Shown: piece by piece, positions 1 to 63,607 of the stretch | Position numbering within the stretch: position 1 is the stretch's first letter | Layout of the letters: every line of letters begins with the position of its first letter | Virus record (IMG/VR): IMGVR_UViG_3300024346_000005 | DNA length: 64,000 nucleotides | DNA from: a virus | Lineage: Duplodnaviria > Caudoviricetes | Reading direction: 5' to 3' (one strand) | Translations under genes and position numbers: made by a program | Notes under the pieces: model-generated | Told to the model about the DNA's origin: nothing | Databases searched by the model: none | What the model saw: the letters and a program-made list of their open reading frames with translations, nothing else

Positions 1-1506
1 CTTAGAGGTACAGTAGATGCCTTACGAGCAGAAACCACAACTCTAAATAATGGTCTTGGAAATGTTTCTAATCTAATACAGCAAGATAGTGCCGTAGAGA
101 AGCAACAGGCATCGGCAGAAGCAGAAAGTGAAAGAAAACTTGCCGAAACAAATATTAGACTGGGGAAAGAATCTCAACTAGAACAAAAAATTACAAATGC
201 TCTGGCAAAACCTGTTCAGGCTCTGCAGCAGAAAGTTGGTAATATATTTGGAAGAATAGGAGAGGCTCTAACTGCATTATTTGCCGGATGGTTGACTAAT
301 CAAGGAATAGAAGCACTTAAGGCAGCATCAGAAGGAAATAAAAACAAATTAGAAGAAATTAAAGATAATGTTCTTAAACATATTGGATTTGGCGTAGCTG
401 CTATTGGTGCAATCAAAATAGGATTTGATTTGGTAATCAAAACTATTACTGGTATTACTGGAAAAATAGGTTCAATTTTACTTAAACTTGCCAAAGCTCC
501 TCTAAAACTTTTAAGAAGTGCTCTTCAAGCTGCTCCATTAGTGGGAGGTCTTTTTGGTGGTCCAAAACCTGGTGGTCCAAAACCTCCTGCTGGACCTGGT
601 GTAAAACCTCCAGCATCAGGAAATCCAATTGCAAGAGGTGTGGGTGCAGTTGCCAATTTTGCTGGAAAAGCACTTACTGCTGTTGGTGGTGTTATGGATG
701 CTGCATCCGGGCAATATACAGACTCTGCTCTTGCCGCTGGTGCTTTACTTGCTCCCGGAGCACTCAAAATTCCTTTTGGTCTTGCATATGGTCTAGATTC
801 AATTAGAGAAATGTTTGGTGGTAATATTTTTGGTAAAAATCCAAATGAACCAGAAAAACCACCAACAACACCAGCGGCAAAAGTCTTACCAACAACTCCT
901 AAGGCAGGAAATCCAAAACCAGCACCAAAACCAGAAACACCACCACCAACAATAGTAGGACCAATAGAAGAACCAGCGGCAGCACCGGCAGCAGTGCAAC
1001 CACAAAACTCTATGTTGTCTCAACCAATATCAGAGGCAGCACCAATATCTCAACCACAAACACCGGCAATTCCTCCACCAAGTCCCGAAATGGTGAAAAA
1101 CTTTGAGATGGCTTGGAAATATAAAGATAACTCTATGGCAAGAGGAAGAATTGAGTCTGCCTGGAATAATATGACTTATGAACAGCAACAGCAGGCAAAG
1201 GAATGGGCAAAATCAACAGACAAGGATTGGACTGAAATGAAGTTGGTCGAAAAACCACCTACAGTCCAAGCAGTACCACTACCATCAGCACAGGTTCAAC
1301 CACTTCCTAAACCCACTCAAAATGTAGGAGAACTTACTGAACCGGCACCGAATGTGGTAATGATGTCATCGGGTCAAAGTAACAATCAACAATCTTCTAT
1401 TTCACAGGCACCAACGAATGGAACCGATACTCCTTTGATTAGTTCTTCTAATCCTGATAATTTTTATGTTCTTTACTCTCAACTGAATTATAATGTGGTG
1501 ATATAA
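1..1506 (+). CDS. 5'-truncated tail/baseplate-associated protein (Pro-rich)
   Basis: Frame 1 is open from base 1 to the stop at 1506, so the ORF-track start at 292 is internal. It lies directly upstream of baseplate hub genes. Confidence 0.6.
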   Translation, partial: LRGTVDALRAETTTLNNGLGNVSNLIQQDSAVEKQQASAEAESERKLAETNIRLGKESQLEQKITNALAKPVQALQQKVGNIFGRIGEALTALFAGWLTNQGIEALKAASEGNKNKLEEIKDNVLKHIGFGVAAIGAIKIGFDLVIKTITGITGKIGSILLKLAKAPLKLLRSALQAAPLVGGLFGGPKPGGPKPPAGPGVKPPASGNPIARGVGAVANFAGKALTAVGGVMDAASGQYTDSALAAGALLAPGALKIPFGLAYGLDSIREMFGGNIFGKNPNEPEKPPTTPAAKVLPTTPKAGNPKPAPKPETPPPTIVGPIEEPAAAPAAVQPQNSMLSQPISEAAPISQPQTPAIPPPSPEMVKNFEMAWKYKDNSMARGRIESAWNNMTYEQQQQAKEWAKSTDKDWTEMKLVEKPPTVQAVPLPSAQVQPLPKPTQNVGELTEPAPNVVMMSSGQSNNQQSSISQAPTNGTDTPLISSSNPDNFYVLYSQLNYNVVI

Positions 1507-1507
1507 T

Positions 1508-3469
1508 ATGGCAATCTCATCACCACTTCAATCAAAAGTTCCAACAGGTTCAACAAAAACGATTAGAAAGTTACAGACTATTCTACTCAATAGAACAAAA
1601 GTTAAACGAGAAATATTTCAAAGGCAAACAATCTTACAAAATCGTAGAATAGAAAATGAAAGAAGAAAACAGAGAGAGGATGAACTTGAGGCACCAAATC
1701 TTGTAACAAAACCTCGTGGAGCAGCAGGATTAATTGCAGGTAGTGCCAAAGGATTTTTTGAAAGATTGGTGGGATTCCTTAGTTATTTGACCGCAGGATG
1801 GATAATTAATAATCTACCCACTTGGATTTCGATGGGTAAAGAGTTTATTGCCAGAACTCAACAAATGGGTAAGATACTTGGAAACTTTGTTGGTAATGTT
1901 ACGACCGTATTTACTAAGTTTACAACACTTTTGGGTGCATCTTTACAAAATTTAATGACATTTGATTTTTCTGATACTTCTGGAAGAGTTAAAACTGCTT
2001 TTGATGACCTAAATTTAAGTGTGGAAAATTGGGGTACTGACTTTGAGAATGCAATCAAATTAATAACAACTCCATTAAGTGAGGGTATTGCTTCTGGAGA
2101 GGATGCCAGACCACTCGGAACTGAAAATACTAATGAGGGTGCCTATGAACGAACTGCACCTTATAGTGGTAGTCAAGGTCCAGAAACATCTGGTGGAAGG
2201 GTTAGTTCGCAAGCAGTATATTCTTATCTTAAAAGTTTAGGAGTTTCTGAAATACACGCTTTAGGTATATTGGCAAATATTCAAGGAGAGAGTGGTTTTC
2301 AAATTGGAGCTCAAGAAAAAGGTGATAGTAAGCAAGGAGTTGGTTTATTTCAATATACATTTCCTAGCCGAAAACAAGCATTTTTAAAAGCAGTTCCTGA
2401 TTATAAAACTAACTGGAAAGGGCAGATTGATTTTGCAATAAAGAGTGACCCGAATACTCCGTTATATTTAAGAAAACAGTTTAGTTCTCCGGAACAAGCA
2501 GCAGATGATTTTATGATACAGTGGGAGAATCCGGATCCAAGAGTTTATGCTGATAGGAGAAAAACACATAATGCTTTTATTAAATCATTCAAACCTGGAA
2601 GTTCTCAATCACAAGCATCTCAACAATCATCTGCACCATCAAGACCAGTATCAACAGGAACTACATCATTAATACCACAAACTGGTGCTGGTGGTTTTCT
2701 TCAAGGTGCTTCTGGAGATGGTAAAGAAGATCAGGGACGTTATGGCGTTCATTTCCATTTAAGCCCACCAAATATGACTGAAGATGGTTATAAAAAAGCT
2801 AGGGATGTTGCTTTTGCTGCTGTTAAAGCAATGTTGGCTAGAGGTTCTAGGATTCATTTTGGCAATATCAAAGAAGATCTTCTTGCTGGCGCTTCAGATT
2901 CTCAAATAAAATCAATGATTCTACGTGAGCAAAAAGCTCACAGTAAAAAAGGAAGAACTCAGGGTGGAATAGATCTTCAAGAAATAAATCCAAATGTTGG
3001 ACCAACTATTGCTGGTTTGCCTGGATCTAAAATTGCTTTTCCTCTTGCAGTAGGAAAAGTATCGTCTCTATCTAGTGGAAGTGGATATGGTAGAGAAGCT
3101 GAAGTTCTTGGTAGTGGCGGCGTAACGCTAGCTCACGGAGCAGCGGGATCTACTGCAAGTAATGTTTCGGGAGCATCACCACGGGCACAACTAGCATCTC
3201 AATCAGCAACACCACAAGCAAAACCCCCAACACCAGCACAAATAACACCAACCGGTACTCCACAAAATCCACAAATAAGTCAATCACTAGCACAAGAGAG
3301 AACCGGACCAACCGTGATTGTTTCTCAAAATCCTTCATCACCGGCACAACAAATGATGTCTTCTGGTGGTGGAGGTTCTTCTGGTGGAGGGTCTTCACCA
3401 ATAAGTGATTTTGCCTTGTTAAATAATTTTATAAAAAATAAACTTCTACTCGACCTCGCTTACCTATAA
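1508..3469 (+). CDS. Baseplate/tail-associated cell-wall hydrolase (phage tail lysozyme domain plus M23-like peptidase motifs)
   Basis: 'ALGILANIQGESGF...GVGLFQYT...QIDF' resembles the phage tail lysozyme (Phage_lysozyme2) family. HFH, GIDL and LAH motifs follow. Confidence 0.65.
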   Translation: MAISSPLQSKVPTGSTKTIRKLQTILLNRTKVKREIFQRQTILQNRRIENERRKQREDELEAPNLVTKPRGAAGLIAGSAKGFFERLVGFLSYLTAGWIINNLPTWISMGKEFIARTQQMGKILGNFVGNVTTVFTKFTTLLGASLQNLMTFDFSDTSGRVKTAFDDLNLSVENWGTDFENAIKLITTPLSEGIASGEDARPLGTENTNEGAYERTAPYSGSQGPETSGGRVSSQAVYSYLKSLGVSEIHALGILANIQGESGFQIGAQEKGDSKQGVGLFQYTFPSRKQAFLKAVPDYKTNWKGQIDFAIKSDPNTPLYLRKQFSSPEQAADDFMIQWENPDPRVYADRRKTHNAFIKSFKPGSSQSQASQQSSAPSRPVSTGTTSLIPQTGAGGFLQGASGDGKEDQGRYGVHFHLSPPNMTEDGYKKARDVAFAAVKAMLARGSRIHFGNIKEDLLAGASDSQIKSMILREQKAHSKKGRTQGGIDLQEINPNVGPTIAGLPGSKIAFPLAVGKVSSLSSGSGYGREAEVLGSGGVTLAHGAAGSTASNVSGASPRAQLASQSATPQAKPPTPAQITPTGTPQNPQISQSLAQERTGPTVIVSQNPSSPAQQMMSSGGGGSSGGGSSPISDFALLNNFIKNKLLLDLAYL

Positions 3470-4812
3470 TGTCAATTAGTAAATCCATATATGAAGAATT
3501 AGTTCTTGAATCAAACGACCAGAAAAGGACGGTTGATATTAAAAATGGAACAATCGCACTCGAATATTTTGAGGATATTTTCTCCCCAACAATTACTGCC
3601 AGAGTCAAGGTGGTTAATACTGGAAATACCATTACATCTTTTAAGGACCAAGACGGAGAAAAGCAATCAATTTATAATGGTCTTCCTCTTCGTGGTGGTG
3701 AAAGGCTCTCAATGAAAATTGCCGGAAATGTTCCGGGAAGAGAATCTTTGGACTTCTCAAATAATCCAAAAAAATATCTTTATGTTTCTAGTATTACCGA
3801 TGTAATCTCAGAAGCACAGCAAGAAAGTTTCACTCTAAATCTAGTTTCAAGAGAGGCAATCACGAATGAAACTTCACGAGTATCAAGAAAATATTCAACA
3901 TCATCAAAGATTAGTGAGTCGGTTCGTAAAATATTAACAGATGTTCTAAAAACTGATAGTATCGGAACAATTGATGAGACTTCCAATAAGTATGGATTTA
4001 TTGGAAATATGAGAAAACCTTTCACAACATTAATTTGGTTGGCATCTAAAGGTGTTCCAGTAGTTTCTGGAAATGCAACTGCCGGATTTGTATTTTATCA
4101 AACTCAGGATGGATTTCAGTTTCGTGCAATTGATAATTTAATCTCTCAAAAATCAAAGGCAACATATGTTTATAGTCCAACGACAGTTTCTTATAATGAT
4201 AATAATGAAAAAGTTGATAATGAATTTAAGATTCTGAATTATAGTACACAGAAAAATCAAAATTTAATTGAGAAACTTCGTCTTGGTACTTATGCAAGTC
4301 AAAGAACATTTTTCAATCCTTTAGATTTTACATTTACTGATCCTAAAGAAGGACTGTTTAAATTACAAAATTATTCCAATAAAACTAATAACCTTGGTGG
4401 GACAGATTTACAACTTCCTAAAATATCTGAGGGATCTGATTTATCTCTCGGAGATGCCCCTTCAAGAATTATTACTGCCATTCTGGATATTGGAACCGTA
4501 GAAAAAGAAGTATCAAAATCTGAAAACGCAGATCCATCATTATATCAATCTCAATCTTTAATGAGATACAATATTCTTTTTACACAAGCTTTGAGTGTAA
4601 TGATTCCCGTAAATACTGATTTAAGAGCGGGTGATGTCATCGAGTGCCTATTTCCAAATAATAGTAAATCGGATAAAAGCGAACACGATTCCGAAACAAG
4701 TGGTCTATATATGATTAAGGAACTTTGCCACCATTTTGATGTGAATAATTCCTATACTTCGATGAAATTGCTGAGAGATACTTTTGGAGTCAATAACAAA
4801 GAAAGAAAATGA
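3469..4812 (+). CDS. Baseplate hub / tail protein (cyanophage gp27-like)
   Basis: 'YFEDIFSPTITA...LPLRGGE', 'FYQTQDGFQFRAID' and 'SGLYMIKELCHHFD' motifs; position upstream of gp5. Confidence 0.65.
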   Translation: MSISKSIYEELVLESNDQKRTVDIKNGTIALEYFEDIFSPTITARVKVVNTGNTITSFKDQDGEKQSIYNGLPLRGGERLSMKIAGNVPGRESLDFSNNPKKYLYVSSITDVISEAQQESFTLNLVSREAITNETSRVSRKYSTSSKISESVRKILTDVLKTDSIGTIDETSNKYGFIGNMRKPFTTLIWLASKGVPVVSGNATAGFVFYQTQDGFQFRAIDNLISQKSKATYVYSPTTVSYNDNNEKVDNEFKILNYSTQKNQNLIEKLRLGTYASQRTFFNPLDFTFTDPKEGLFKLQNYSNKTNNLGGTDLQLPKISEGSDLSLGDAPSRIITAILDIGTVEKEVSKSENADPSLYQSQSLMRYNILFTQALSVMIPVNTDLRAGDVIECLFPNNSKSDKSEHDSETSGLYMIKELCHHFDVNNSYTSMKLLRDTFGVNNKERK

Positions 4813-6896
4813 TAGACGAATCTTTACTCAAAAGTAATTTTATAGGAAGAGATGGATTCCGTTGGTGGATAGGTCAGATTCCACCGGAGAGTTCTCATGG
4901 TGGGCAAATAAATGGAGCAGGATGGGGAAATAGATTTAAAGTTCGTATTATGGGGTATCATCCTTATAATACGGTAGAACTTCCGAATGAAGATTTACCA
5001 TGGGCACAGTGCTTATTACCAACAACTTCAGGAACTGGAGCAGGAAATAATGCAACTACGGTAAAAGTATCTCCAGGAGATACTGTATTTGGATTCTTCC
5101 TAGATGGAGATAATGCTCAGATTCCAGTTATTATGGGATGTTTTGGAAGAACTTCACAAGTTCCTTCCGGAGATTATGCCGGACCTTTTATACCTTTTAC
5201 TGGATATACTGGTAAGGTTAAAAAACCAAATGGTACACTGAAACCTGACCAATCACTTGAACAAAATGCAAAATCTCAAAAGTCTCCAAGAAGTGTTTCA
5301 CCACAACAAGCAGAAGCAATTGCAGATGATGAGATTTCTTCCTTTAGTGCAATTGGTGATAAAATTCTACTTGGAAATACGGTAAATAATACTATTATTG
5401 GTAAAATATCTACTGAGGTTGGTAATTTACTGAATAAGATTAAGGCACCGGCAATCTTTACAAATATTGCAAATGAAATTACTCGTGTAACCGATAAGAT
5501 ACAGGCAATTACAAATGGTCTTGTTGGTAATATGGTTAATGGTTTATACAAAGGTATGATACCAATATTGAATAGTGGTCTTCAATTACTTTATAATTCA
5601 GTTTATAGTATAGTTCTGGCAGCAACTCAAAATCCTGCTGCTGCTCATCTTGCTGGTGTTGCCGCACAAACTGCGATGGTTAATCCAATTAAGGCAGTAG
5701 AACAGGCAATTCCTTGTGTTGCCGGTGCAATCATAAGTGGTCTTGGAAGTCTCATAGAAGAGATACTTAATTCTGTAGTTGATAATGTTCAAAATTTTGT
5801 GTCTTGTGCCGCAAATCAATTTACTGGAGTACTCGTTAATGATATTATTGGTAAAATATCAAGCGGATTGAGTGCCTCACTTGGAGGAATCCAGACAATT
5901 TTAGAATTTACTCCATCATTTAGTGTTGATGGATTTTTGCGTAATAGTGTAGATTCAATCAAAGGTCTTGTTGGACTATTTGATTGTAATCAGAGTAAAG
6001 GAAAATCTAATGGTATTGTTGATGAATGGATAATTGGTTGCGGACCGACAAATGCACCTACACCTAATTTTGATGAAATTTTAGAAAATGCAAATGTTAC
6101 TAATGCAATAGCAACTGCTGGTGATGTATTAGGTGGAATACAAGGTGCTATTGGAGCAGTTACTGATATTGTTGGTGGAGTTGCGGGTGCATTTAGTGCA
6201 ATAAACAACATTCCAAATCAAATTGGTGGTTGTTATACCGGACCACCACTATTTTGTAGTGCTCCTGTGGTGACTATTTTTGGTGGAGGTGGAACAGGAG
6301 CAACTGCAATACCATTAATTGGGGCAATTTCTGGTTCAACCGGAAGTGTTATTGGTGCAAAAGTAACAAATGGAGGTTCTGGATATAGATTCCCACCATT
6401 CGTGGAGATTAGAGATAATTGTAATCAAGGATATGGTGTCGTTGCCAGAGCAACTATTAATGATGCCGGAGAAGTTGATTCGGTTTATATTGTATCCGAA
6501 GGAGAAAATTATCCAACGGGAGATTTATATGATAATTCAGTATCTACAACTGCAAACACAGTAATTAATAATTCAACCGAAAATCAGACACAATCATTAA
6601 TTGCCAGAAATTATAGTGTGAATAAGATTCTTATTCAAAATCCAGGTCAAAATTATATTGGGGGAGTCGGTGGAGACACGGCAACAGATCAATTTGATAA
6701 TGAATATTCTATTGAAATATTTGAGGGATCTATTACTAAGATACAACCAATAAATACTATAGTTATTGTGAACGATCTTCCAATAATTACCATTAAATCT
6801 GATACTGGTTCTGGTGCTATATTACGACCCATACTAGATACACCGCCAGCAGAGTTCCAAGGTGAAGTAAAACAAGTAATAGATTGTGTAACATAA
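4809..6896 (+). CDS. gp5: Baseplate hub subunit gp5-like (N-terminal OB-fold)
   Basis: 'GRDGFRWWIGQI...RFKVRIMGYHP...LPWA...GDTVFGFFLDGDNAQIPVIMG' is the gp5 OB-fold signature. Confidence 0.85.
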   Translation: MIDESLLKSNFIGRDGFRWWIGQIPPESSHGGQINGAGWGNRFKVRIMGYHPYNTVELPNEDLPWAQCLLPTTSGTGAGNNATTVKVSPGDTVFGFFLDGDNAQIPVIMGCFGRTSQVPSGDYAGPFIPFTGYTGKVKKPNGTLKPDQSLEQNAKSQKSPRSVSPQQAEAIADDEISSFSAIGDKILLGNTVNNTIIGKISTEVGNLLNKIKAPAIFTNIANEITRVTDKIQAITNGLVGNMVNGLYKGMIPILNSGLQLLYNSVYSIVLAATQNPAAAHLAGVAAQTAMVNPIKAVEQAIPCVAGAIISGLGSLIEEILNSVVDNVQNFVSCAANQFTGVLVNDIIGKISSGLSASLGGIQTILEFTPSFSVDGFLRNSVDSIKGLVGLFDCNQSKGKSNGIVDEWIIGCGPTNAPTPNFDEILENANVTNAIATAGDVLGGIQGAIGAVTDIVGGVAGAFSAINNIPNQIGGCYTGPPLFCSAPVVTIFGGGGTGATAIPLIGAISGSTGSVIGAKVTNGGSGYRFPPFVEIRDNCNQGYGVVARATINDAGEVDSVYIVSEGENYPTGDLYDNSVSTTANTVINNSTENQTQSLIARNYSVNKILIQNPGQNYIGGVGGDTATDQFDNEYSIEIFEGSITKIQPINTIVIVNDLPIITIKSDTGSGAILRPILDTPPAEFQGEVKQVIDCVT

Positions 6897-6897
6897 A

Positions 6898-7524
6898 ATG
6901 GCAGAAAGACCTTTTGATAAACAAAACTGGCAGGGAAGAAGTCTAACAAGCTTTGGACCGAAGTTCAGAATAGATATGAATAACCCTCAAATGGGTTGTA
7001 ATGGTACTGAAGTTTATAATCTTTATGCCGTAACTAATAATAATGATGTCTGTCTTACTGGATTGACTGAAGGTGGAAATTACAGACTATATAATGACCG
7101 ATCAATAGAAATTATTGCCGGGCAAAAAAGTGAGTCAAATGGTGTAGATATTATTATTAGTGGGAGAAATGGTGATGTTTGTATAACTGCAGAAAAAAAT
7201 GGAAGAGTAAGAATTCGTGCTCAAAATATTATGATTGATGCAGATGAAGATGTAGATATTAAAGCAGGAAGAAATATTACATTAGATTCTGGTTCGGGAA
7301 GAATCTTACTCAAAGCAAATAAGGCAGACTGTGATGCACTAACCGGAAATCTGGCACCAAAAAATACCAATTGGGGTGCTCAAGTCTTTGCCGGAACATT
7401 TGTTGGTTCTGATGTTCTTGATGCAGCATTTAATATTGCTGATGTCTTCGTTGAAAGTGGTGAGATCGGAGGCATCGGTGGCAGTGGCATCATTGGTAAT
7501 ATAACTTCAATTGTGGGTTTATGA
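6898..7524 (+). CDS. gp5 C-terminal-like baseplate spike protein
   Basis: Beta-helix-like I/D-x-I repeats, directly after gp5. Confidence 0.55.
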   Translation: MAERPFDKQNWQGRSLTSFGPKFRIDMNNPQMGCNGTEVYNLYAVTNNNDVCLTGLTEGGNYRLYNDRSIEIIAGQKSESNGVDIIISGRNGDVCITAEKNGRVRIRAQNIMIDADEDVDIKAGRNITLDSGSGRILLKANKADCDALTGNLAPKNTNWGAQVFAGTFVGSDVLDAAFNIADVFVESGEIGGIGGSGIIGNITSIVGL

Positions 7525-7732
7525 AATGACAAATATTAATTTACGGGCAGGTCGGATGGTGGAACGGCAAGTATTATACAAGGGTATGATTTTATAACTG
7601 ACCTCAATCAAATGTGGTTGGAAGATGGTGTTGATGGCGACTACAATGACCTTCGATGGATTCCAAGTCAGGGTGAAATATTTGATAATGGTGGTGGTAA
7701 TTTTACTTATATATTATACTATTGACAACCCC

Positions 7733-7761
7733 TTGACAACCCGCCCCAGATGCCCTATAAT
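7733..7761 (+). promoter_or_regulatory. sigma70-type promoter
   Basis: TTGACA-17 bp-TATAAT. Confidence 0.8.
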
Positions 7762-7787
7762 ACATAGGTAATCAAACGAAACGCCTG

Positions 7788-7973
7788 ATGCCTGTCGAAG
7801 AGACCCTGACCCGCTGTGTTGTCGATACTCTTGCTCGTAAGTTCTATCTGTATTCAAGCGAAGGTGGTGAAAAAGTTGTGAATTGTGAGACCGTAGACCA
7901 GTTTATGAATGTTCTTGAAGTGGTTCGTGCTCAGGTAAGTGATGATTGTCTTGCATACTCAAATCCTCTTTGA
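7788..7973 (+). CDS. Hypothetical cyanophage protein
   Basis: 61-aa ORF directly after the promoter. Confidence 0.6.
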   Translation: MPVEETLTRCVVDTLARKFYLYSSEGGEKVVNCETVDQFMNVLEVVRAQVSDDCLAYSNPL

Positions 7974-7976
7974 TAA

Positions 7977-8159
7977 ATGGAAAAGTTTACGGTAGAAGAA
8001 TTTCAATCAGACTTTGATAATCTACTAGAAAGAGTGGAAAATGGAGAGTCTTTTATTGTTACTAGCGAACACGGAGATGCTATGATGATTCCTTATAGTC
8101 AATACAAAGAAGCAGACGACCTCATACGAATACACACCGACCACGAAGAAGGTTGTTGA
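7977..8159 (+). CDS. Phd/YefM-like antitoxin-fold small protein
   Basis: 'FTVEEFQSDFDNLLERVENGESFIVTSEHG...MIPY' matches the Phd/YefM N-terminal pattern. Confidence 0.55.
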   Translation: MEKFTVEEFQSDFDNLLERVENGESFIVTSEHGDAMMIPYSQYKEADDLIRIHTDHEEGC

Positions 8160-8207
8160 GTCAAGGCAACTTATAGGTCTTATATGTTGCTTCAAGGCAA
8201 CTTTTAT

Positions 8208-8280
8208 GGGCGGATAATTTAATTGGTCAAAATGCTCTGCTTATAACGGAGTTATGAGGGATCATGGCCCTCTCTGCCTA
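8208..8280 (+). tRNA. tRNA-Ile(TAT)
   Basis: Cloverleaf: GGGCGGA/TCTGCCT acceptor stem, CTCTG-CTTATAA-CGGAG anticodon arm, GAGGG/CCCTC T-stem. No encoded CCA. Confidence 0.85.
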
Positions 8281-8313
8281 TTGACCATAATGACTCTTTG
8301 AGTTATAATGGTC
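8281..8313 (+). promoter_or_regulatory. sigma70 promoter embedded in a hairpin between the tRNAs
   Basis: TTGACC-17-TATAAT (8281-8309) within the inverted repeat GACCATAA...TTATAATGGTC. Confidence 0.6.
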
Positions 8314-8323
8314 TCATACACAA

Positions 8324-8405
8324 GCCCCCTTGGCGTAATTGGTAGCCGCTACGGATTTAAAATCCGTTGACTTTAGTCGTGCCGGATCGTACCCGGCAGG
8401 GGGTA
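8324..8405 (+). tRNA. tRNA-Leu(TAA)
   Basis: GCCCCCT/AGGGGGT acceptor stem, ACGGA-TTTAAAA-TCCGT anticodon arm, long variable arm, GCCGG/CCGGC T-stem. Confidence 0.88.
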
Positions 8406-8437
8406 TTGAAATAAATATAAGATATTGAGATACTCAA

Positions 8438-8746
8438 ATGTCTTTCAAGTATAAAATAAGTCAGTCATACTGTTGGTATAATAACGGAAGTATGATTGTG
8501 AAAATGTACTTCATCAACGAGATTCCATTTACCTTCGATGAATTACCTGACGGGCACTTATACGACCAAGACCTCTGTAGAACGGCAGATAAGTATCGTG
8601 CATATGAACCAGATGATTTATTTAAGAACTCATTCTATCTTATAGACGAGGAAGCACACCCATTACTTTTTGATATGGACCTAGAAAACCCCCAAGACCT
8701 TCCAGATGAAGGTTATGAGTTTTTGCGGCAGGACTTATCTTCATAA
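8438..8746 (+). CDS. Hypothetical cyanophage protein
   Basis: 102-aa ORF after a TAAATA late-promoter core. Confidence 0.65.
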   Translation: MSFKYKISQSYCWYNNGSMIVKMYFINEIPFTFDELPDGHLYDQDLCRTADKYRAYEPDDLFKNSFYLIDEEAHPLLFDMDLENPQDLPDEGYEFLRQDLSS

Positions 8747-8840
8747 ATAATGGTGCTTATTCGTGGTTGTTTAGGCAAAGATTAAGGGGCAGAAATGCTC
8801 CTTTTCTTGTATAAATAAGTATAACCACGAATAAAGTAGA
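8743..8840 (+). promoter_or_regulatory. Dual late-promoter / antisense-arm / terminator cassette (copy 1)
   Basis: ATAAATA, arm GCTTATTCGTGGTTGT, hairpin GGGGC-AGAAAT-GCTCC-TTTT, TATAAATA (8810-8817), arm ATAACCACGAATAAAGT, ATG. Confidence 0.75.
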
Positions 8841-9386
8841 ATGAATAATTATTACACTTATGCATATTTGCGTGAAGATGGAACACCATATTATATCGGT
8901 AAAGGTAAAGCAGGTAGAATTAATAATACCTTACACACTATTCATCTTCCAGTAAAAGAAGAAAGAAGAATATTCTTAAAGAAAAATCTTACCGATGAAG
9001 AAGCAAGGAAGCACGAGATTTATATGATTGCTGTTTTAGGTAGAAAAGATTTAGGAACAGGAATTTTAAGAAATATGACCGATGGTGGGGAAGGTTGTGC
9101 CGGTCGTGTTTTAAGTGAAGAAACAAAAAAGAAGTTGAGTGATAGTCATAAAGGAAGAAAGAAAAGTGAGGCACACCGAAAAGCATTAAGTGAGGCGGCG
9201 AAGAAAAGAAAAGCAAGTGAAGAAACAAGAGAAAAAATGAGTAAAGTTTTTATGGGAGAAAATAATCCGTCTTTTGGGAAAAAGTGGTGGAATAATGGTG
9301 TAGAAAATAAACTCTGTAAAGAATGTCCCGGTGAAGAATATGTTTTAGGATTTCTGAACAAGTATTGGATGAATAAACATAAATAA
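8841..9386 (+). CDS. GIY-YIG (Seg-like) homing endonuclease with NUMOD3 repeats
   Basis: '[19 protein letters not shown]', 'GILRNMTDGGEG' and 'LSEETKKKLS' repeats. Confidence 0.85.
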   Translation: MNNYYTYAYLREDGTPYYIGKGKAGRINNTLHTIHLPVKEERRIFLKKNLTDEEARKHEIYMIAVLGRKDLGTGILRNMTDGGEGCAGRVLSEETKKKLSDSHKGRKKSEAHRKALSEAAKKRKASEETREKMSKVFMGENNPSFGKKWWNNGVENKLCKECPGEEYVLGFLNKYWMNKHK

Positions 9387-9413
9387 AACATATTAGGTAT
9401 ATTAGTAATAAAT

Positions 9414-12400
9414 ATGGGATTAAACAAACTTGATAATTTTATAAAGAACACAGAAGGTCGCATTCTTTATGTTTCTCCAAGTGACCTTGATTCTACTGAT
9501 AGTATTAGTAATCAGGGTAATTCACTTGCTCAACCCTTCAAGACGCTACAGAGAGCACTTCTAGAAGCAGCAAGATTTTCCTATCAGAGAGGAAATAGTA
9601 ATGATGATGTAGAGAAGACTACAATTCTCTTAATGCCAGGAGCACATACGGTTGATAACAGACCTGGTTTTTCTATAAAAACTGTTGGTACTACTGCAAC
9701 AGTAACATCTCCAAGTGGGGCAACATCTGCGGCATCAAATACCTTATCACTTACACTCAATTCAGTATTTGACCTCACACAAGACGATAATATTCTTTAT
9801 AAGTTCAATAGTGTTAATGGTGGTGTTGTTGTACCCAGAGGAACCTCAATCGTTGGTCTAGATTTAAGAAAGACTAAGATTCGTCCAAAATATGTTCCGA
9901 ACCCAACAGATTCTTCTGTTCCAAACTCGGCAATTTTTAGAATTACCGGTGCCTGCTATTTCTGGCAGTTCTGTATCTTTGACGGCAGTACAGAAGGTAC
10001 GGTATATACTGACCCAACAGATTTTTCCGTCAATAACAAATCAATCCCAACATTCTCCCACCACAAACTCACATGCTTTGAGTATGCAGATGGAGTAAAT
10101 CTATATGAAGATACAGGTCTTACTGACTTGGATATGTATTATGCGAAACTCTCTAATGCATTTAATCTTGCATCTGGTAGAGACATCGATCAAAAGTATC
10201 CTGCCGATCCTCTTGGTTTTGAGAAGCAGAGGCCAGAATGGGAGATTGTAGGTGCTTTTGCCGCAGATCCTATTAAGATTTCTACAATTGAGTCTGGGTC
10301 TGGTGGAACCGCAAGTAGTCAGGTTACGGTCAAAACTTTAGTACCTCACGAACTCTCGGCAGGAACTCCAATTAAGATTAGTGGAGTTTCTCCGGAAAAC
10401 TATAATATCTCAACAAAAGTTCAGAGTATTAGTGATACGGACCCAACTGTCTTTACATATCTTCTTCCAAATTTCCCACTCAATCTAACAACACCAGGAA
10501 GTGCATCTAGTGCATTTGTAACAATTGAGACTGATACCGTATCCGGAGCATCTCCATATATCTTTAATATTTCATTGCGTTCCGTTTATGGTATGAATGG
10601 AATGCTTGCCGATGGTAGTAAGGCATCGGGTTTTCGTTCGATGGTTGTTGCACAATTTACTGGCGTATCTCTACAAAAAGATGACCGTGCATTTGTAAGA
10701 TATAATCCAACAAATAGAGATTATTCTGACAATATTGCCATCTCCAGAGTTGCCGGAGCAACTTTATCTGGTAATTCTTCTTCTACCAGCATAGCATATC
10801 ATCTAGAACCACTATCAATTTATAGAAGTGGATGGGAATCAAGTCACATTAAAGCAACAAATGATGCCTTTATTCAGATTGTTTCCGTATTTGCAATTGG
10901 TTTTAATAAGCACTTTGATTCTGAAAGTGGTGGAGACCTGAGTATCACTAACTCAAACTCCAACTTCGGGCAGATTTCACTTACTTCTTCTGGATTTAAG
11001 AAAGAAGCATTTGATAAGGACAATAAAGCATTCATCACCTCAATTATTGCTCCAAGAGCAATTGTAGGAGAAGAAGATAATATTGATTGGATTTCATTAG
11101 ATGTTGCCAAGATTGATGCACCGAGTAGTAATAACGCCAGACTATATCTATTTGGATTTACTTCTGAAGATGATGTACCACCAGTACTCACTCAGGGATA
11201 TAGAATTGGTGCAAAAGTAGGTGATAAACTATATTTTACTGCAAACGGGACAGAATACTCGGCAAATATTTTAATGTCCGATGGAGTCACAAGTTCTGTT
11301 AAAGAATATTCAGTAACTGGCATCCCATCATCAAATAAATTTACAATTGGATCTCATAATATTCAGACTGGTGAAAAAGTTATTATTCTGAGTGATGATG
11401 GTGATTTGCCAGAAAATATTGTAGAAAATACAGTTTATTATGCAATTGCAAGTGATGTTGACGGTAGTTTAACTGCAAATGAAATTAAACTTGCTTCTTC
11501 ACAATCGGCAGCAGTCAGTGCAAATGCAATTAGCGTTTATAAAGGAACTGGTCTAAGAATTCTGAGTCGGGTATCAGATAAGGTTGCCGGAGATGTCGGG
11601 CACCCAGTACAATATGATGGTACTCAGTGGTATATTACCACAAATGCTAATAGTGGCATTTATACGGCAATCAATTCATTGGGTGTTGCGGGATTAACAG
11701 AAAGAACCGAACCTTCTTATGTAAAGAGAACTGAAGATACCAGAAGTTTGGATGAAAAACTTTATAAGATTAGAGTTGTAATTCCAAAAGAACTTGTGGG
11801 TGCCAAAAACCCAGAGGATGGATTTGTAATTCAAGAATCAAGTTTTACTGGAATTAGATCGGATACTGACATTAATTTATCATCTCTTTCAACATCAGAC
11901 TATGAGTATAACAGAAATCCAAGATTTATTAGTACTTGCTCTTTCAATGAATCTACCAAAATTGTAACTGTTACTTCTGAACTTCCACACAATCTTCAAG
12001 TTGGTGATAGTATTATTATCAAGAATGTAACGGACAGCACCAACCCTGCTGGAGTTGGAAATTCTGGATATAATGGAACCGTTGGGGTTTCATCAGTTTT
12101 TGATGATATGACCTTTAGATATTCTGTAGGAATAACTACTTTAGGATCATTCACAAATGTAACCTCCAACAGAACAACCTCACTTCCAAGATTTGAGAGA
12201 AATGACTTACAAGCAAATCTTTACAATTATAGAAGCGAAGTAATCACTCCATACATTAGTGGTATTCAGGATGGTGTTTATCACATCTATACTTTAAGTG
12301 CCGATAAGGCAATTCCAACAGAGTTCACAAATATTAAGTATAGTCAGAATGTTGTTGATTTATATCCACAGTTAGACAGAGATAATATTAATGATAATCC

Positions 12401-28292: not shown

Positions 28293-28383
28293 AACTGGCA
28301 CAAGACCCCCCGAATCCCCTGGTGGATGCCCTATAATTACAGAGTAAACAATCGAATTGACGGCAATCGTCAGAAAAACTGTT

Positions 28384-59336: not shown

Positions 59337-59882
59337 TTAATCCCAATTAGTTGCATTTGGTAAACGATTCATTACCTTACGAAGACCATACTGAGATATG
59401 TACTGCTCTAATGCACCCTCAAAAATACTATTCATAAAAGAATGCCCGTCTGGTACTGGTAATCCCTTACGAATAGATGCGACATGAACTTCTTTAGTCT
59501 TCATAAGTAAGTGATCGTTTAGTGTAAAACCTTTAATATCTTTATTGTATTTTTTATTTCTTTTAGATTCTATCCATTCTAAGTTTTCAATTCTGTTATC
59601 TTGTTGGTTTCTATTTAAGTGATTTACTTCTAATGAGAAATTATCGCAGGGTATAAATGCCATTGCCACTAAACGATGAACGAATAAGTTTTTTAATCTA
59701 CCATTATTACCTGTTAGTCTAACGAACAAATATCCACCTCTCTTCTTAGCCCATCCGGGACTTAATCTCTTTATTTTTTTAGTCTTCCAACTATACACAT
59801 TACCATCTGCATCTACGCCGTAATCATTGTATTCTTCAAGTCCGAGTATTTCATTTAATCCTTTTATCTTGGGTATATCCAT
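59337..59882 (-). CDS. NUMOD4-HNH homing endonuclease
   Basis: 'DYGVDADGNVYS', 'FVHRLVAMAFIP...EVNHLNRNQQDNRIENLEW'. Confidence 0.88.
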   Translation of the reverse strand: MDIPKIKGLNEILGLEEYNDYGVDADGNVYSWKTKKIKRLSPGWAKKRGGYLFVRLTGNNGRLKNLFVHRLVAMAFIPCDNFSLEVNHLNRNQQDNRIENLEWIESKRNKKYNKDIKGFTLNDHLLMKTKEVHVASIRKGLPVPDGHSFMNSIFEGALEQYISQYGLRKVMNRLPNATNWD

Positions 59883-60070
59883 GGGGTTTTTTGGTTAGTT
59901 TTTTCTACCAAAAATATTTAGTAGAAAAAAGTAATTTGTTTTGTACTTATAATAGATTAAATATGATTGTATACTTGGTTAATTTCTCATTAATGATGTA
60001 TTATTGAGAATAAATGTGTTAGAATACTTATGAATGCTTATAAATGAAACATCCTTATGCAAGTAAAGCG

Positions 60071-60099
60071 AGCATACCATAAGACTCACCGTTTGTCAA
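60071..60099 (-). promoter_or_regulatory. Divergent sigma70 promoter
   Basis: Minus-strand TTGACA-17-TATGCT. Confidence 0.55.
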
Positions 60100-60138
60100 G
60101 CCCCACTGCCCCCATAATACTATGAGACCCACACAAAA

Positions 60139-60387
60139 TCTCGACGAGACCTTGACAAATCTCATAATCTAGTCTAGAATACTCATAAGCACACAAAATC
60201 TAGTCGAGAACACATATATACTATCACAATCTCGTCTAGAATACACTTGCATCTAGTCGAGATCTGTGCTACAATCATCTAGTATACACACAATCTCGAC
60301 GAGTATTATGTACGACGACTACGATCTCGACTATACATACACAAACGACCACACAGATCTCGACGAGTATTATACATCTAGTCTAGA
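60139..60387. repeat. Array of nine 11-bp degenerate palindromes TCTMGWCKAGA
   Basis: Copies at 60139, 60168, 60199, 60230, 60252, 60294, 60325, 60358 and 60377, plus a half-site at 60278. Confidence 0.9.
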
Positions 60388-60460
60388 CCTAGATGAGGAT
60401 TATGCACGAGATTCACATGATTACGAATCACTTGCATATCGTCACTATGCATGATATAAT
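60152..60460 (+). promoter_or_regulatory. Three tandem sigma70 promoters; the first two overlap the palindromes
   Basis: TTGACA-17-TAGAAT (60152-60180), TTGCAT-17-TACAAT (60247-60275) and TTGCAT-17-TATAAT (60432-60460). Confidence 0.7.
60308..60454 (+). CDS. Small Asp/Tyr-rich hypothetical protein
   Basis: MYDDYDLDYTY...; overlaps the palindrome array. Confidence 0.5.
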   Translation: MYDDYDLDYTYTNDHTDLDEYYTSSLDLDEDYARDSHDYESLAYRHYA

Positions 60461-60687
60461 CTAGATACACACACATACACAACGAGACTCCTATGATTGC
60501 CCAGAAGCGCCTTGTACGGGTTACATTAGACATTATGTGTTATGATGACCTAGACCTAGAAACAACCGACTGGAAGGACCTTCTAGACCTCGAAGGTGAC
60601 GAAGATGTCTATGCTAGCATAAGGGAACTCGAACCGTGGATGTAATGTGCCACTTCATTAATTGGCACAAACTTATATAAATAAAAT

Positions 60688-60912
60688 CACTTGAGTTCTT
60701 ATATCATAGAGCAGCACTTGAACTCTCCTGCGGGATACAGAGTCAATCTGACAGAATATAAGAAACCAAGTGAACCTTAAATATCATCTAGGCGGACAGG
60801 GTTTAACTATAGGTTTCCCACGGCGCCGAATATAGCGAACAATCCAATATTACCGAACTGAATATAGTTATCTCGTGTTCTTGAAACGTATCAAGAATAG
60901 GAGGATTTTTTA
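60688..60912 (+). ncRNA. Candidate structured non-coding RNA
   Basis: TATAAATA at 60676-60683, a long stem TCACTTG..TTCTTATAT/ATATAAGAA..CAAGTGA enclosing three hairpins, more hairpins, a terminal stem plus T-run, and no long ORF. Confidence 0.6.
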
Positions 60913-61039
60913 GTATCTGGATATAATGATGTGACAATTCTCGAACTGGCACAGAACCCCTTGTGGAATGCCGGGTGAGGGGTTATTCTACATTCGTGGT
61001 TGAGGAATTCTCTACATTCTCCTCGTCACCCCAAATATT

Positions 61040-62670
61040 ATGAAACTCTTCGTCGCTAAGTTCTACCAAACTCTGATTCTAAATGTTGCTACCATCGCCG
61101 CAATCGTTGTTGGAATTGTACAATTTGGCATTCGTGCTTATAAAGAAAACAACGGCGCAGAAAAGACCCGCAAGGTGATTCAAACCGTGCTGCGGTTCGT
61201 TGATACTATTGTGGGGCAATTGCAGGCATTCGTTGATACTGATGTGCCAGTTGTAAAGGTGGCACCGAAAACTACCAAACGCCGCTGATTGGTGGTATTC
61301 TACTTTCATACCTGAGGAATTCATGAAACAAACTCATCGGTTCGTTACATTTAAAGAGGCACTTGTGTTTCTAATGAATGAGTTGCAATTGAGTAATCAG
61401 GAGGCAACACATTTCATTTGGGACAATCAGTTTACTATGGGAACTGATCGGGCAATTTGGATTACTATGCCAATCTGAGAACTGTCACAAGGGGGGTTGC
61501 GGTTCCCCCCAAAACCTGATATTCTACTTTCATACCTGAGAAATTCAATGGTTTTCGTCATCTCCGAACTCAACGGTTGCACTTACAAACTGGACGCAAA
61601 CAATCAGCGGGTCCTAATGTATGCTCCGCTGCTATCTGATGGTTCATATGAAACTGCAGGGTCGGCATATGATTGGGTAGAGTGGGACCGTTTAGACCCT
61701 GATGTTCTAGAAGAAGCAGACCGTATTCACAAACTGTTGCTCGCAGAGGTGTAATTATGAACTACGATAATTTCTGGAAGAACGTATTAGGGCAGGAAGA
61801 TTGGGTTAATGAACTAGTCAAATGGGAGAATGCTCATCCAGAGTATACACCCTTTCAAGAAGATAAAGACTCTCAACGCCAACAAAACACCAAACAAATC
61901 TAGATGACAACTTTTCTCACCAAAGCACAACGCCAAATCTTGATTGATTGGTATATTGACTGCCTGATTGATACTGAGTCTGAGTTTGTTGATGGTAGTG
62001 AAGAAGCAGAGCGTCAAAGTTTGGCATCGATGAATAACTCTTACTTCTATGAGTACGTTCAGGAGATGATGCCTAACTGTATGGAAGACCTTGCGAAAAT
62101 GAAACAGGATATGACAGTCTGACTAGTGGCACAAGGGGGGTTGCGGTTCCCCCCAAAACCTGTTATTCTACATTCATACCAAACAAATCCAAATGAAAAT
62201 TATCTGCTCCAAACCTAATGCTAAGGGTGGATATCACGATGTTGGTATGACTCACCGTAGGTTGACTGGTGATTATTCAACCGTACGTAACTTCATTCGT
62301 TATGGTGTACCTAGTGACTTCTATGGTAACACTCTGCGGTTGGAAGTCTTCTACGGTGAGAATATCTATCGGGCACCAGATAAAGTGTTGTATGTGACAG
62401 TCTAGAAAGTGTCACAAGGGGGGTTGCGGTTCCCCCCAAAACCTGTTATTCTACATTCGTACTCAAGCAATTCACCAAATGACATTCGACCGAGCACAAC
62501 TAGTTGAAGATTACATTCAACAACTTATTGAGGGTATGGATTATAAAACTATGGAGTGTCTGGTTTATGATACTCTGAAGGATAATCTCTCGGATTATAC
62601 TGATGAGCAACTCATCACAGAGGTTACAGAATACAATCCAGAACTGTTGGAGGATGTGCCAGTGGCATAA
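61040..62670 (+). other. Single-gene early cassettes (61040-61288, ~61548-61754, 61904-62122, 62193-62405, 62479-62670)
   Basis: Most ORFs are directly preceded by their own dyad plus TATTCT promoter. Confidence 0.7.
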
Positions 62671-62740
62671 GTGGCACAAGACCCCTAGACTTCCTGCCTC
62701 AATCCTGTTATTCTACATTCATACTCAAGCAATTCACCAA

Positions 62741-63163
62741 ATGACTATCACGATGACTGCCAACTACAAAGAAGTTCTGAAACTGGAAACTGTTGAGTTC
62801 ATTGAAGAGAACTGTGTTGAAGGTGAGTATGATTTAGATGATGCTCTCAAGTTCATTGATGAGCACAATGAGGATGACTTCGTGGCATATTATGATGAGT
62901 ATGTTCGTGTTGGTGAGATTCTGGGTTATGATGTAGTTGATGCCTTTATTGAATATCACGGTGGTGTTTCGTATGTTGAGCACGTAGAAGAAGCATACCG
63001 TGGAGTGTATAGTTCCGAAGCAGACTTTACCGAAGACTTCTATAACGAAGTCTATGGTGATGTTCCCTCTATGTTGGTTGTAGATTGGGAGGCAACTTGG
63101 CAGCAGAATCTATCATATGACTTTGACTTCGTGAATGGTTATGTGTTTAGTTCTTCGTTCTAA
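62741..63163 (+). CDS. ArdA-like antirestriction (DNA-mimic) protein
   Basis: Highly acidic; C-terminus 'YRGVYSSEADFTEDFY...LVVDWEATWQQNLSYDFDFVNGYVF' resembles the ArdA family. Confidence 0.65.
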   Translation: MTITMTANYKEVLKLETVEFIEENCVEGEYDLDDALKFIDEHNEDDFVAYYDEYVRVGEILGYDVVDAFIEYHGGVSYVEHVEEAYRGVYSSEADFTEDFYNEVYGDVPSMLVVDWEATWQQNLSYDFDFVNGYVFSSSF

Positions 63164-63607
63164 AGTATTCAACTCAACTCTAAATCCTTTACATTCTTTT
63201 CCTGTTCCTACGATAAGGTACATTCTCGATTTTGATACATTATGTTCTTTCGAAAACTTATGCAAATTGTCAGTTTCTGCATAACACCTTCCATCCTTGA
63301 ATATCTTATAGATAATTCCTAAATTACCTTTTGCGTGATGATTATTGTATGTCTCATTACACCACTCCAAGTTTGAAATGTTATTATTTGTTTTGTCCTT
63401 ATCAATATGATTAACTTGAGGCAAATTATCTGGATTTGGAATAAAGGTTTCTGCAACTAATCTATGAACTAACCTACTCATCCCATTAACTTTCATTTTT
63501 AAATAACCTTTAGGACAAACATATGATTTTAAATAGTTTCCTTTTTTTCCTATCACTTTTCCATCTTTTGTGATATAATAACCTTTATGTACCGGATGCT
63601 CTAACAT
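63113..63607 (-). CDS. NUMOD4-HNH homing endonuclease
   Basis: 'YYITKDGKV', 'VHRLVAETFIPNPDNLPQVNHIDKDKTNNNISNLEWC'. Confidence 0.9.
   Translation of the reverse strand: MLEHPVHKGYYITKDGKVIGKKGNYLKSYVCPKGYLKMKVNGMSRLVHRLVAETFIPNPDNLPQVNHIDKDKTNNNISNLEWCNETYNNHHAKGNLGIIYKIFKDGRCYAETDNLHKFSKEHNVSKSRMYLIVGTGKECKGFRVELNTLERRTKHITIHEVKVI

Follow-up and report, generated by a model that had tools for sequence, protein, structure and literature searches.

The operators of phage lambda (OR and OL, bound by CI and Cro), of P22 (Arc and Mnt) and of phi29 (p4 and p6) are short dyad sites laid over the cores of strong early promoters. Two to four such sites, about two helical turns apart, lie on one face of the helix, which permits cooperative binding, and divergent and tandem promoters are packed together with them into a few hundred bp of non-coding DNA. 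Helix-phased palindromic repeats are found also at the lambda origin of replication (ori-lambda), in or beside the initiator gene and close to a very AT-rich, repeat-containing tract. The T4 origins oriF (uvsY) and oriG (34) present another design, a MotA-dependent middle promoter reading into easily melted AT-rich DNA. Plasmid centromeres, such as sopC of F, parC of R1 and the omega sites of pSM19035, are composed of phased short sites to which a small dimeric protein binds cooperatively. In the PeSL cassettes, finally, which T4-type phages repeat at gene boundaries between the small ORFs of the hyperplastic early region, a terminator hairpin precedes a single early promoter.

T4-like cyanophages rank with the most abundant marine viruses. 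As a review of these phages points out (PMC2984593), cyanomyoviruses lack both MotA and AsiA, and the timing of their early, middle and late transcription is therefore an open question. An operator system of the lambda kind is not on record for T4-like lytic phages in the searchable literature. Our present results describe a control region of about 450 bp in a 64-kb stretch of viral DNA (the window), which belongs to a T4-like cyanophage (Kyanoviridae) whose nearest cultured relatives, S-SRM01 and S-PM2, are about 85-87% identical to it in patches. The region is made up of an inverted repeat, tandem AT-rich units, a conserved block with a leftward promoter (PL) and an array of helically phased palindromes set into rightward promoters; no description of it or of its motif was found in the literature searched. 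Judging from the arrangement of the sites, we consider it rather probable that the array is a cooperative operator array, through which a predicted dimeric DNA-binding protein would shut off immediate-early promoters.

All nine palindromes are confined to positions 60139-60387. Six match TCTMGWCKAGA exactly (60139, 60168, 60199, 60230, 60252 and 60377), against 0.06 exact matches expected in 64 kb from dinucleotide shuffles, and three more (60294, 60325 and 60358) carry one mismatch, in agreement with the nine degenerate 11-bp palindromes listed in the initial annotation. A one-mismatch scan of the rest of the 64 kb gave only two matches (172 and 16439), which is the chance level (2.5); the motif is thus not dispersed at background frequency, and the initial annotation had likewise noticed it nowhere else in the window. 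Tandem Repeats Finder (TRF) does not see the palindromes as a tandem array. Each of them is 11 bp long with a 5-1-5 architecture, two half-sites being inverted around one central base, and is thereby a dyad-symmetric site sized for a protein dimer. The half-sites TCTCG and TCTAG are freely mixed and the two degenerate positions do not covary, which argues for half-sites in duplex DNA recognized by a dimer and not for an RNA hairpin.

At a helical repeat of 10.5 bp, the phases of copies 1-9 are 2.5, 0, 10.0, 9.5, 0, 0, 10.0, 1.0 and 9.5, so eight of the nine deviate by at most 1 bp from a common phase. Their pairwise cosines average 0.65, a value reached by random spacings with p about 0.001. 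The offsets of 31, 62, 84, 126, 157, 190 and 209 bp from the copy at 60168, as well as the placement of eight copies on one helical face, had been proposed in the initial annotation, and both are confirmed.

The palindromes are interleaved with three rightward promoters, which by their sequence are of the host sigma70 type. P1 (60152-60180, plus strand; TTGACA, 17 nt, TAGAAT) agrees with the consensus at 11 of 12 positions in a promoter scan. Copy 1 (TCTCGACGAGA, 60139-60149), the sole copy off phase (by 2.5 bp), is located just upstream of its -35 hexamer, and copy 2 (TCTAGTCTAGA, 60168-60178) overlaps its -10. Copy 3 (TCTAGTCGAGA, 60199-60209) is followed by a conserved CATATATAC element; a promoter P2 once considered at this element was dropped, as it has no acceptable -35. 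After copy 4 (TCTCGTCTAGA, 60230-60240) comes P3 (60247-60275, plus strand), composed of TTGCAT (60247-60252), a 17-nt spacer and an extended -10, TGcTACAAT, with the hexamer at 60270-60275. Its spacer is filled by copy 5 (60252-60262), centred near -25. Copy 6 (TCTCGACGAGT, 60294-60304, one mismatch) lies in the leader and ends 3 nt before the ATG of a small gene, ORF A, and copies 7-9 (60325, 60358 and 60377) lie inside that gene. P4 (60432-60460, plus strand; TTGCAT, 17 nt, TGaTATAAT) overlaps the last codons of ORF A and would drive the following ORF B. The unit of ORF A and ORF B is closed by a hairpin, GTGCCA...TGGCAC (60647-60668, plus strand), whose dyad is shared with the many early cassettes of the window. 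The two sigma70 promoters said earlier to be overlapped by copies were indeed found, both on the plus strand. Because the promoters are near consensus, an activator should not be needed, and the placements of the palindromes appear, from sequence, to be classic repressor positions.

Metatranscriptome contigs from four studies cover 60074-60692, that is the array, ORF A and ORF B; they are unstranded and come from relatives 90-95% alike, and so show only presence in RNA libraries. Together with the location of most copies downstream of P1, where they would be transcribed, and with the low G content of the leader (22 G in 177 nt), they could be taken to mean that the repeats act in the mRNA leader and coding region of ORF A, as binding sites for a protein or nuclease or as small hairpins. 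We regard such an RNA-level element as very improbable. Lacking covariation at the variable positions, the 4-bp stem is often broken, and a stem with a 3-nt loop would be very weak in any case. Copies are present upstream of P1 as well, single ACGAGAT half-sites of relatives occur in either order, and no Rfam family matches the region. Independent half-sites combined with palindromic symmetry are the signature of a dimer on duplex DNA.

Conservation of the array was followed in cultured phages and in environmental contigs. A near-identity search of the locus gave no match in cultured phages, and a search for distant DNA similarity located it in S-SRM01, S-T4 and S-SKS1, the last being an unrelated siphovirus with the same arrangement. 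The array is present also in the Prochlorococcus phage P-SSM2, whose ORF A is PSSM2_098. Among IMG/VR contigs, 458 stretches were retrieved with ORF A as query and 380 with ORF B, and after removal of near-duplicates 79 non-redundant homologous loci remained, those of S-SRM01, S-T4, S-SKS1 and P-SSM2 among them. Across these, copies preceding ORF A recur near -13, -54, -85, -117 and -150 relative to its ATG, with coding copies at +47 to +53 and at +86. The leader copy stands at -12 to -14 in nearly all loci, and where loci were read closely, 2-6 nt separate the end of one copy from the ATG. Adjacent spacings peak at 31-32, 42 and 22 bp, corresponding to 3, 4 or 2 helical turns, and a periodogram of all palindrome pairs across relatives has its peak at 10.5-10.6 bp, so that the phasing, too, is conserved. 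Information is confined to the motif and an AA 5' of it (extended consensus AATCTCGWCGAGA), the spacers being variable and G-poor; sites and arrangement are thus kept while the flanks drift, as in operator arrays.

The relation of sites to promoters is similarly fixed. P3 is found in all 79 loci, 70 of them with the extended -10 (TTGCAT-17-TGnTAYAAT), and in 64 of the 79 a palindrome is centred at -25/-24 within its 17-nt spacer. P-SSM2 has a perfect TTGACA, a palindrome in the 17-nt spacer and TATAAT, so that sites overlapping core promoter elements, seen in the window at the P3 spacer and the P1 -10, are found there alike. P4 is kept in S-SRM01, S-T4 and most other loci, and about 30 have a promoter equivalent to P1 between -185 and -120. 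Certain lineages carry single ACGAGAT half-sites in place of full palindromes. In loci L129, L122, L016 and L023, and in that of S-SKS1 (L182, 1160-1520), most full palindromes have given way to repeated single half-sites (C/T)ACGAGAT, before ORF A as well as within it.

ORF A (60308-60454, plus strand) encodes a very acidic, tyrosine-rich protein of 48 aa that begins with MYDDYDLDY and ends with LAYRHYA. Five copies had been placed upstream of this ORF; with its start at 60308 the number is actually six, the remaining three being internal. The internal copies are read as D-L-D-E, and an ACGAGAT half-site, which the ORF also contains, as A-R-D. We asked whether ORF A might be a non-gene, kept only by the DNA motifs it contains, and rejected this, as 63 of 65 loci maintain its frame although the ORF occurs in 13 different lengths. 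The coding copies are under selection at the DNA level: the second aspartate of D-L-D-E is encoded by GAC in 80% against 41% elsewhere in ORF A, and the glutamate by GAG in 95% against 51%. The leucine is CTC or CTA in 98%, a figure given without a comparison to leucines elsewhere in ORF A, where CTC and CTA also fit partial motif copies. This codon bias means that the DNA constrains the protein and not the reverse, and coding by ORF A alone, the explanation that the initial annotation had named as its possible undoing, does not account for the copies. The conserved C-terminal LAYRHYA peptide and the stop (60432-60460) are encoded by the same bases as the -35 and the extended -10 of P4, and the peptide is retained even where the locus has lost the P4 -10.

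Among isolates, the presence of palindromes follows that of ORF A, not that of ORF B: P-SSM2, S-T4, S-SRM01 and S-SKS1 have both ORF A and palindromes, and Bellamy, S-SCSM1 and DSL-LC03 keep ORF B and lack both. ORF A is so far the sole gene seen to follow the array in this way. This co-occurrence, and the use of the same word to encode D-L-D-E, would also be expected if the repeats were functionless by-products that arose when the D-L-D-E coding repeat of ORF A was duplicated in tandem and then decayed. We disfavour this origin of the repeats and hold it to be extremely improbable. Among loci whose ORF A proteins share 60-80% identity with that of the window, the spacers have diverged and the motif has not; positions and phasing are conserved, TRF reveals no recent tandem array, clusters exist far from ORF A, and the codon bias shows the constraint to run from the DNA to the protein.

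Palindromes are not limited to the ORF A locus. P-SSM2, with 252 kb, and the closest complete relative, G002, with 234 kb, each have a single palindrome locus; G001 has two clusters, S-SRM01 three, and other contigs up to four within about 12-15 kb. A scan of viral contigs for paired sites matched at least 120 contigs, and of 173 clusters listed 86 adjoin ORF A and 87 do not. Clusters of the latter kind are found repeatedly before three further small early genes and directly behind the anti-restriction (ArdA-like) gene; some secondary clusters follow a stop codon and have no obvious promoter, which counts against the operator reading. A paired-site scan of about 185,000 genomes of cellular species gave 15 matches, near chance, and none in any cyanobacterium. 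A host regulon with paired sites was rejected on these grounds, and the array is, as far as paired sites can tell, phage-specific. Of the three functions suggested in the initial annotation for its cooperative platform binding a dimeric protein, the repressor hub agrees best with these data, given the spacer copy in a conserved promoter in 64 of 79 loci and the further clusters before other early genes in relatives; the platform itself also fits, and origin and packaging are unsupported, as explained below.

Candidates for a protein that would bind the array were sought, and none of the four considered (ORF A, ORF B, a gp177-like protein and an ORF of S-SRM01) qualifies as the cognate regulator. 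ORF A, which has no Pfam or PHROG match and only a low-confidence AlphaFold2 (AF2) model, is far too acidic for DNA binding and might instead be a DNA mimic. ORF B (60493-60645, plus strand) encodes a conserved, acidic protein of 50 aa belonging to phrog_12516, of unannotated function. Its AF2 model (pLDDT 88) contains one four-residue helix only, as assigned by DSSP; no fold match was obtained with Foldseek and VIA-align, no match in the PDB and no convincing one in Pfam, where only weak Tudor-like matches appear. An autoregulator of ribbon-helix-helix or AbrB-like type, which its N-terminus might suggest, is therefore unsupported. As a binder, ORF B was set aside because it has no recognisable DNA-binding fold and persists in Bellamy and S-SCSM1 without palindromes. 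The gp177-like protein (ISKKAKNRFANLM) is present in Bellamy, which is free of palindromes, and has no match in P-SSM2, S-T4 or S-SKS1. The fourth candidate is an unannotated ORF of 100 aa (L003 2535-2837, corresponding to S-SRM01 90334-90636), which has a winged-helix look by eye and belongs to a GC-rich insert that immediately precedes palindrome cluster 3; it was found in no other locus.

In the left part of the control region, a conserved block of about 55-70 bp (60053-60106, minus strand) contains PL, with TTGACA at 60099-60094, a 17-nt spacer and an extended -10, TGnTATGCT (TATGCT at 60076-60071). This is the divergent promoter of the initial annotation, and the AT-rich non-coding stretch noted there beside the array proved to contain the lowest-GC 150 bp of the window (59896-60045, 19% GC). 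Of the 79 loci, 66 have the TTGACA of PL, and all but one of these (65 of 66) have TG at -15/-14 as well; PL fires leftward into DNA with a mean GC content of 26%. In the window this DNA is an AT-rich tract (59883-60052) comprising an inverted repeat, TTCTCATTAAT / ATTATTGAGAA, at 59984-60010, tandem units of about 10 bp at 60022-60046 (TRF period 10) and a late-promoter-like element, TATAAATG, at 60039-60046. The three elements recur in relatives, the sequence and copy number of the unit vary, and the units resemble TATAAAT. The inverted repeat, as a recurring element TTCTCAATAA / TTATTGAGAA (59984-60010 in the window), precedes the tandem units at the left end of the control region.

Upstream of the conserved block, L023, L024, L141 and L017 carry tandem AT-rich units of 10, 20, 30 bp or more in 2 to about 10 copies, and TATAAAT, which forms the core of T4-type late promoters, is found in many of these units. 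The TTCTCAATAA / TTATTGAGAA repeat occurs twice (L006 4720-4752 and 4866-4893) in another non-coding stretch, of 700 bp, after a secondary palindrome cluster. One contig from an RNA library starts at 60058-60074, about 10-20 nt downstream of TATAAATG (60039-60046), and could reflect a late start reading rightward through the whole array.

A promoter that reads into an AT-rich unwinding element resembles the design of T4 oriF and oriG, and for this part of the region an origin reading may be possible. PL would then prime an R-loop in the AT tract, and the palindromes would be iterons or sites of a regulator of origin firing. The conservation of PL and the extreme AT content of the tract it reads into agree with this idea, as does the variation of the tandem units between phages, which implies that the content of the transcript is not conserved, only the act of transcribing AT-rich DNA. 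The single locus in P-SSM2 and G002 would fit a unique cis-acting site, and lambda iterons are likewise palindromic and beside an AT-rich region; here the array (60139-60304) and the tract (59883-60052) are separated by about 90 bp with the conserved block.

We nevertheless judge an origin at this locus to be rather unlikely. The neighbours are homing endonucleases, acidic ORFs and the anti-restriction gene, with no initiator, helicase-loader or other replication gene nearby, and in S-T4 a distance of over 90 kb separates the locus from the replication genes. Two to four clusters per genome are present in S-SRM01, in G001 and in many contigs. The palindromes lie in rightward promoters about 90 bp away from the AT tract, and Bellamy and S-SCSM1 retain the block, PL and the AT tract without palindromes, which are hence dispensable for whatever that part does. 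A weaker point is the cumulative GC skew of S-T4, which falls monotonically with no V-shaped inflection; transcription dominates skew in these one-strand genomes, the S-T4 locus lies in the only stretch (about 9 kb) of near-zero skew, and the skew of the window, also dominated by transcription, flattens from 58 kb onward. For the same reasons (no initiator or terminase gene nearby, several clusters in many relatives, no skew inflection in S-T4), the origin or packaging function suggested in the initial annotation is unsupported. Its remark of knowing no defined origin in T4-like cyanophages should be qualified, since a single theta origin has been predicted for Syn9 (PMC2984593).

In the S-T4 record (NC_048049.1), positions 1-9513 and 171570-181082 appear duplicated, the motif sites recurring at an offset of 171,569 bp. 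This terminal duplication of about 9.5 kb, within which the locus lies some 2.5 kb from the record end, may be either an assembly overlap or a real terminal repeat.

An extended form of the origin idea, which we consider unlikely, takes the whole control region of about 450 bp as the primary origin of T4-like cyanophages, coupled to an immediate-early switch. DNA synthesis in the AT tract would start from the leftward transcript as primer, at a time set by the palindrome-binding protein. If PL and the AT tract were an origin, another gap in the biology of T4-like cyanophages would be filled; if the whole region were, cyanomyoviruses would have their first sequence-defined origin and their first early regulator.

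Two HNH endonuclease genes bracket a block of about 3.2 kb that extends from the array over ORF A and ORF B through the anti-restriction gene. The left one (59337-59882, minus strand; Pfam HNH_3, 2.4e-08; PHROG HNH endonuclease, 3e-28) forms the border outside the array, and the right one (63113-63607, minus strand) sits where relatives have a palindrome cluster after the anti-restriction gene. The anti-restriction gene itself (62603-63163, plus strand; phrog_36653, 8e-29) is ArdA-like and is found in a run of small acidic ORFs, which looks like an early anti-defence block. About 20 cassettes in the window (among them those at 28327, 29854, 46013, 52529, 52948 and 53520) contain a GTGNCA...TGGCAC dyad, a C-rich stretch and TGCCCTATAAT and lack a good -35; another subclass, located right of the array (60984-62709), has TATTCTAC as its -10. 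These early cassettes resemble the PeSL cassettes of T4-type phages.

This neighbourhood raises the question of whether the palindromes are targets of the adjacent homing endonucleases, or boundary repeats promoting the shuffling of early genes in a PeSL-like manner. The flanking of the block by HNH genes, one of them in the cluster position of relatives, speaks for it, as do HNH genes beside two of the three S-SRM01 clusters, a GIY-YIG-like gene upstream in L025 and the PeSL-mediated shuffling known in T4-type phages (PMC2839356, PMC4122927). A normal homing site, however, is a long, asymmetric sequence present once, and insertion destroys it; phased arrays standing intact beside a nuclease gene do not resemble such sites. 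The arrays of S-T4 and P-SSM2 have no adjacent endonuclease, and neither the fixed position in a promoter spacer nor the helical phasing is explained. The PeSL paper searched makes no mention of such a palindrome. A role in homing or recombination is on balance quite improbable.

We therefore return to the operator array, and propose how it would work. The palindromes would be operators, duplex-DNA sites for a sequence-specific dimer, and P1, P3 and P4 would drive ORF A and ORF B, the first genes of an early block to which the anti-restriction gene also belongs. After injection, unmodified host RNA polymerase would fire from these promoters, until a regulator, either an early phage product or a host protein, fills the sites. 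As the sites are 2, 3 or 4 turns apart on one face, bound dimers could contact each other and load cooperatively. Copies in the P3 spacer, at the P1 -10/+1, in the leader at about +17 and in ORF A would then occlude polymerase or block elongation, and the immediate-early unit would be switched off. In relatives, the same sites would gate other early genes and so form a small regulon. What the sequences show is the sites themselves, their phasing and conservation, their constant place in conserved promoters and the selection on the coding copies as DNA; that a protein binds the array and that its effect is repressive, we infer.

The significance of the array lies in the concrete cis-element it defines, with a conserved motif, a fixed promoter geometry and a conserved helical phasing, in hundreds of environmental phage genomes. 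It is present in culturable systems, P-SSM2 on Prochlorococcus NATL1A and NATL2A, S-T4 and S-SKS1 on Synechococcus WH7803, and S-SRM01, and the question of its regulator can therefore be tested. Since the block that begins with the element encodes small acidic proteins and contains an anti-restriction gene, the regulator may gate the first wave of anti-defence.

Compared with the systems described above, the array shares with plasmid centromeres phased short sites suited to cooperative binding of a small dimer; contrary to them, its sites lie in promoters, the phage is lytic and has no need for partition, and no gene of ParA, ParB or ParR type is present among the ORFs of 58.5-64 kb. Like PeSL cassettes, it is repeated regulatory DNA at gene boundaries between small ORFs of a hyperplastic early region. 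Its motif is another one, no stem-loop precedes P1 or P3, and its promoters have consensus -35 and -10 elements, whereas the PeSL-like cassettes of the window use another dyad and another -10 context. PL shares with T4 oriF and oriG the reading into easily melted AT-rich DNA of unconserved sequence, but has a sigma70-type extended -10 in place of a MotA-dependent middle promoter. With ori-lambda the array has in common helix-phased palindromic repeats close to a very AT-rich tract containing repeats; it differs in being neither in nor beside an initiator gene, in having its repeats inside promoters, in its several copies in many relatives, and in an AT tract that, together with its promoter, persists in phages without palindromes. 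From the operators of lambda, P22 and phi29 it is distinguished by a strictly lytic, T4-like phage background, by the lack of an adjacent cognate regulator gene, by five to nine sites at a spacing of three turns instead of two to four at about two, and by sites that run on into coding sequence. What it shares with them is the short dyad site over the core of a strong early promoter, the placement of several sites on one helical face, where cooperative binding is permitted, and the packing of divergent and tandem promoters into a few hundred bp of non-coding DNA.
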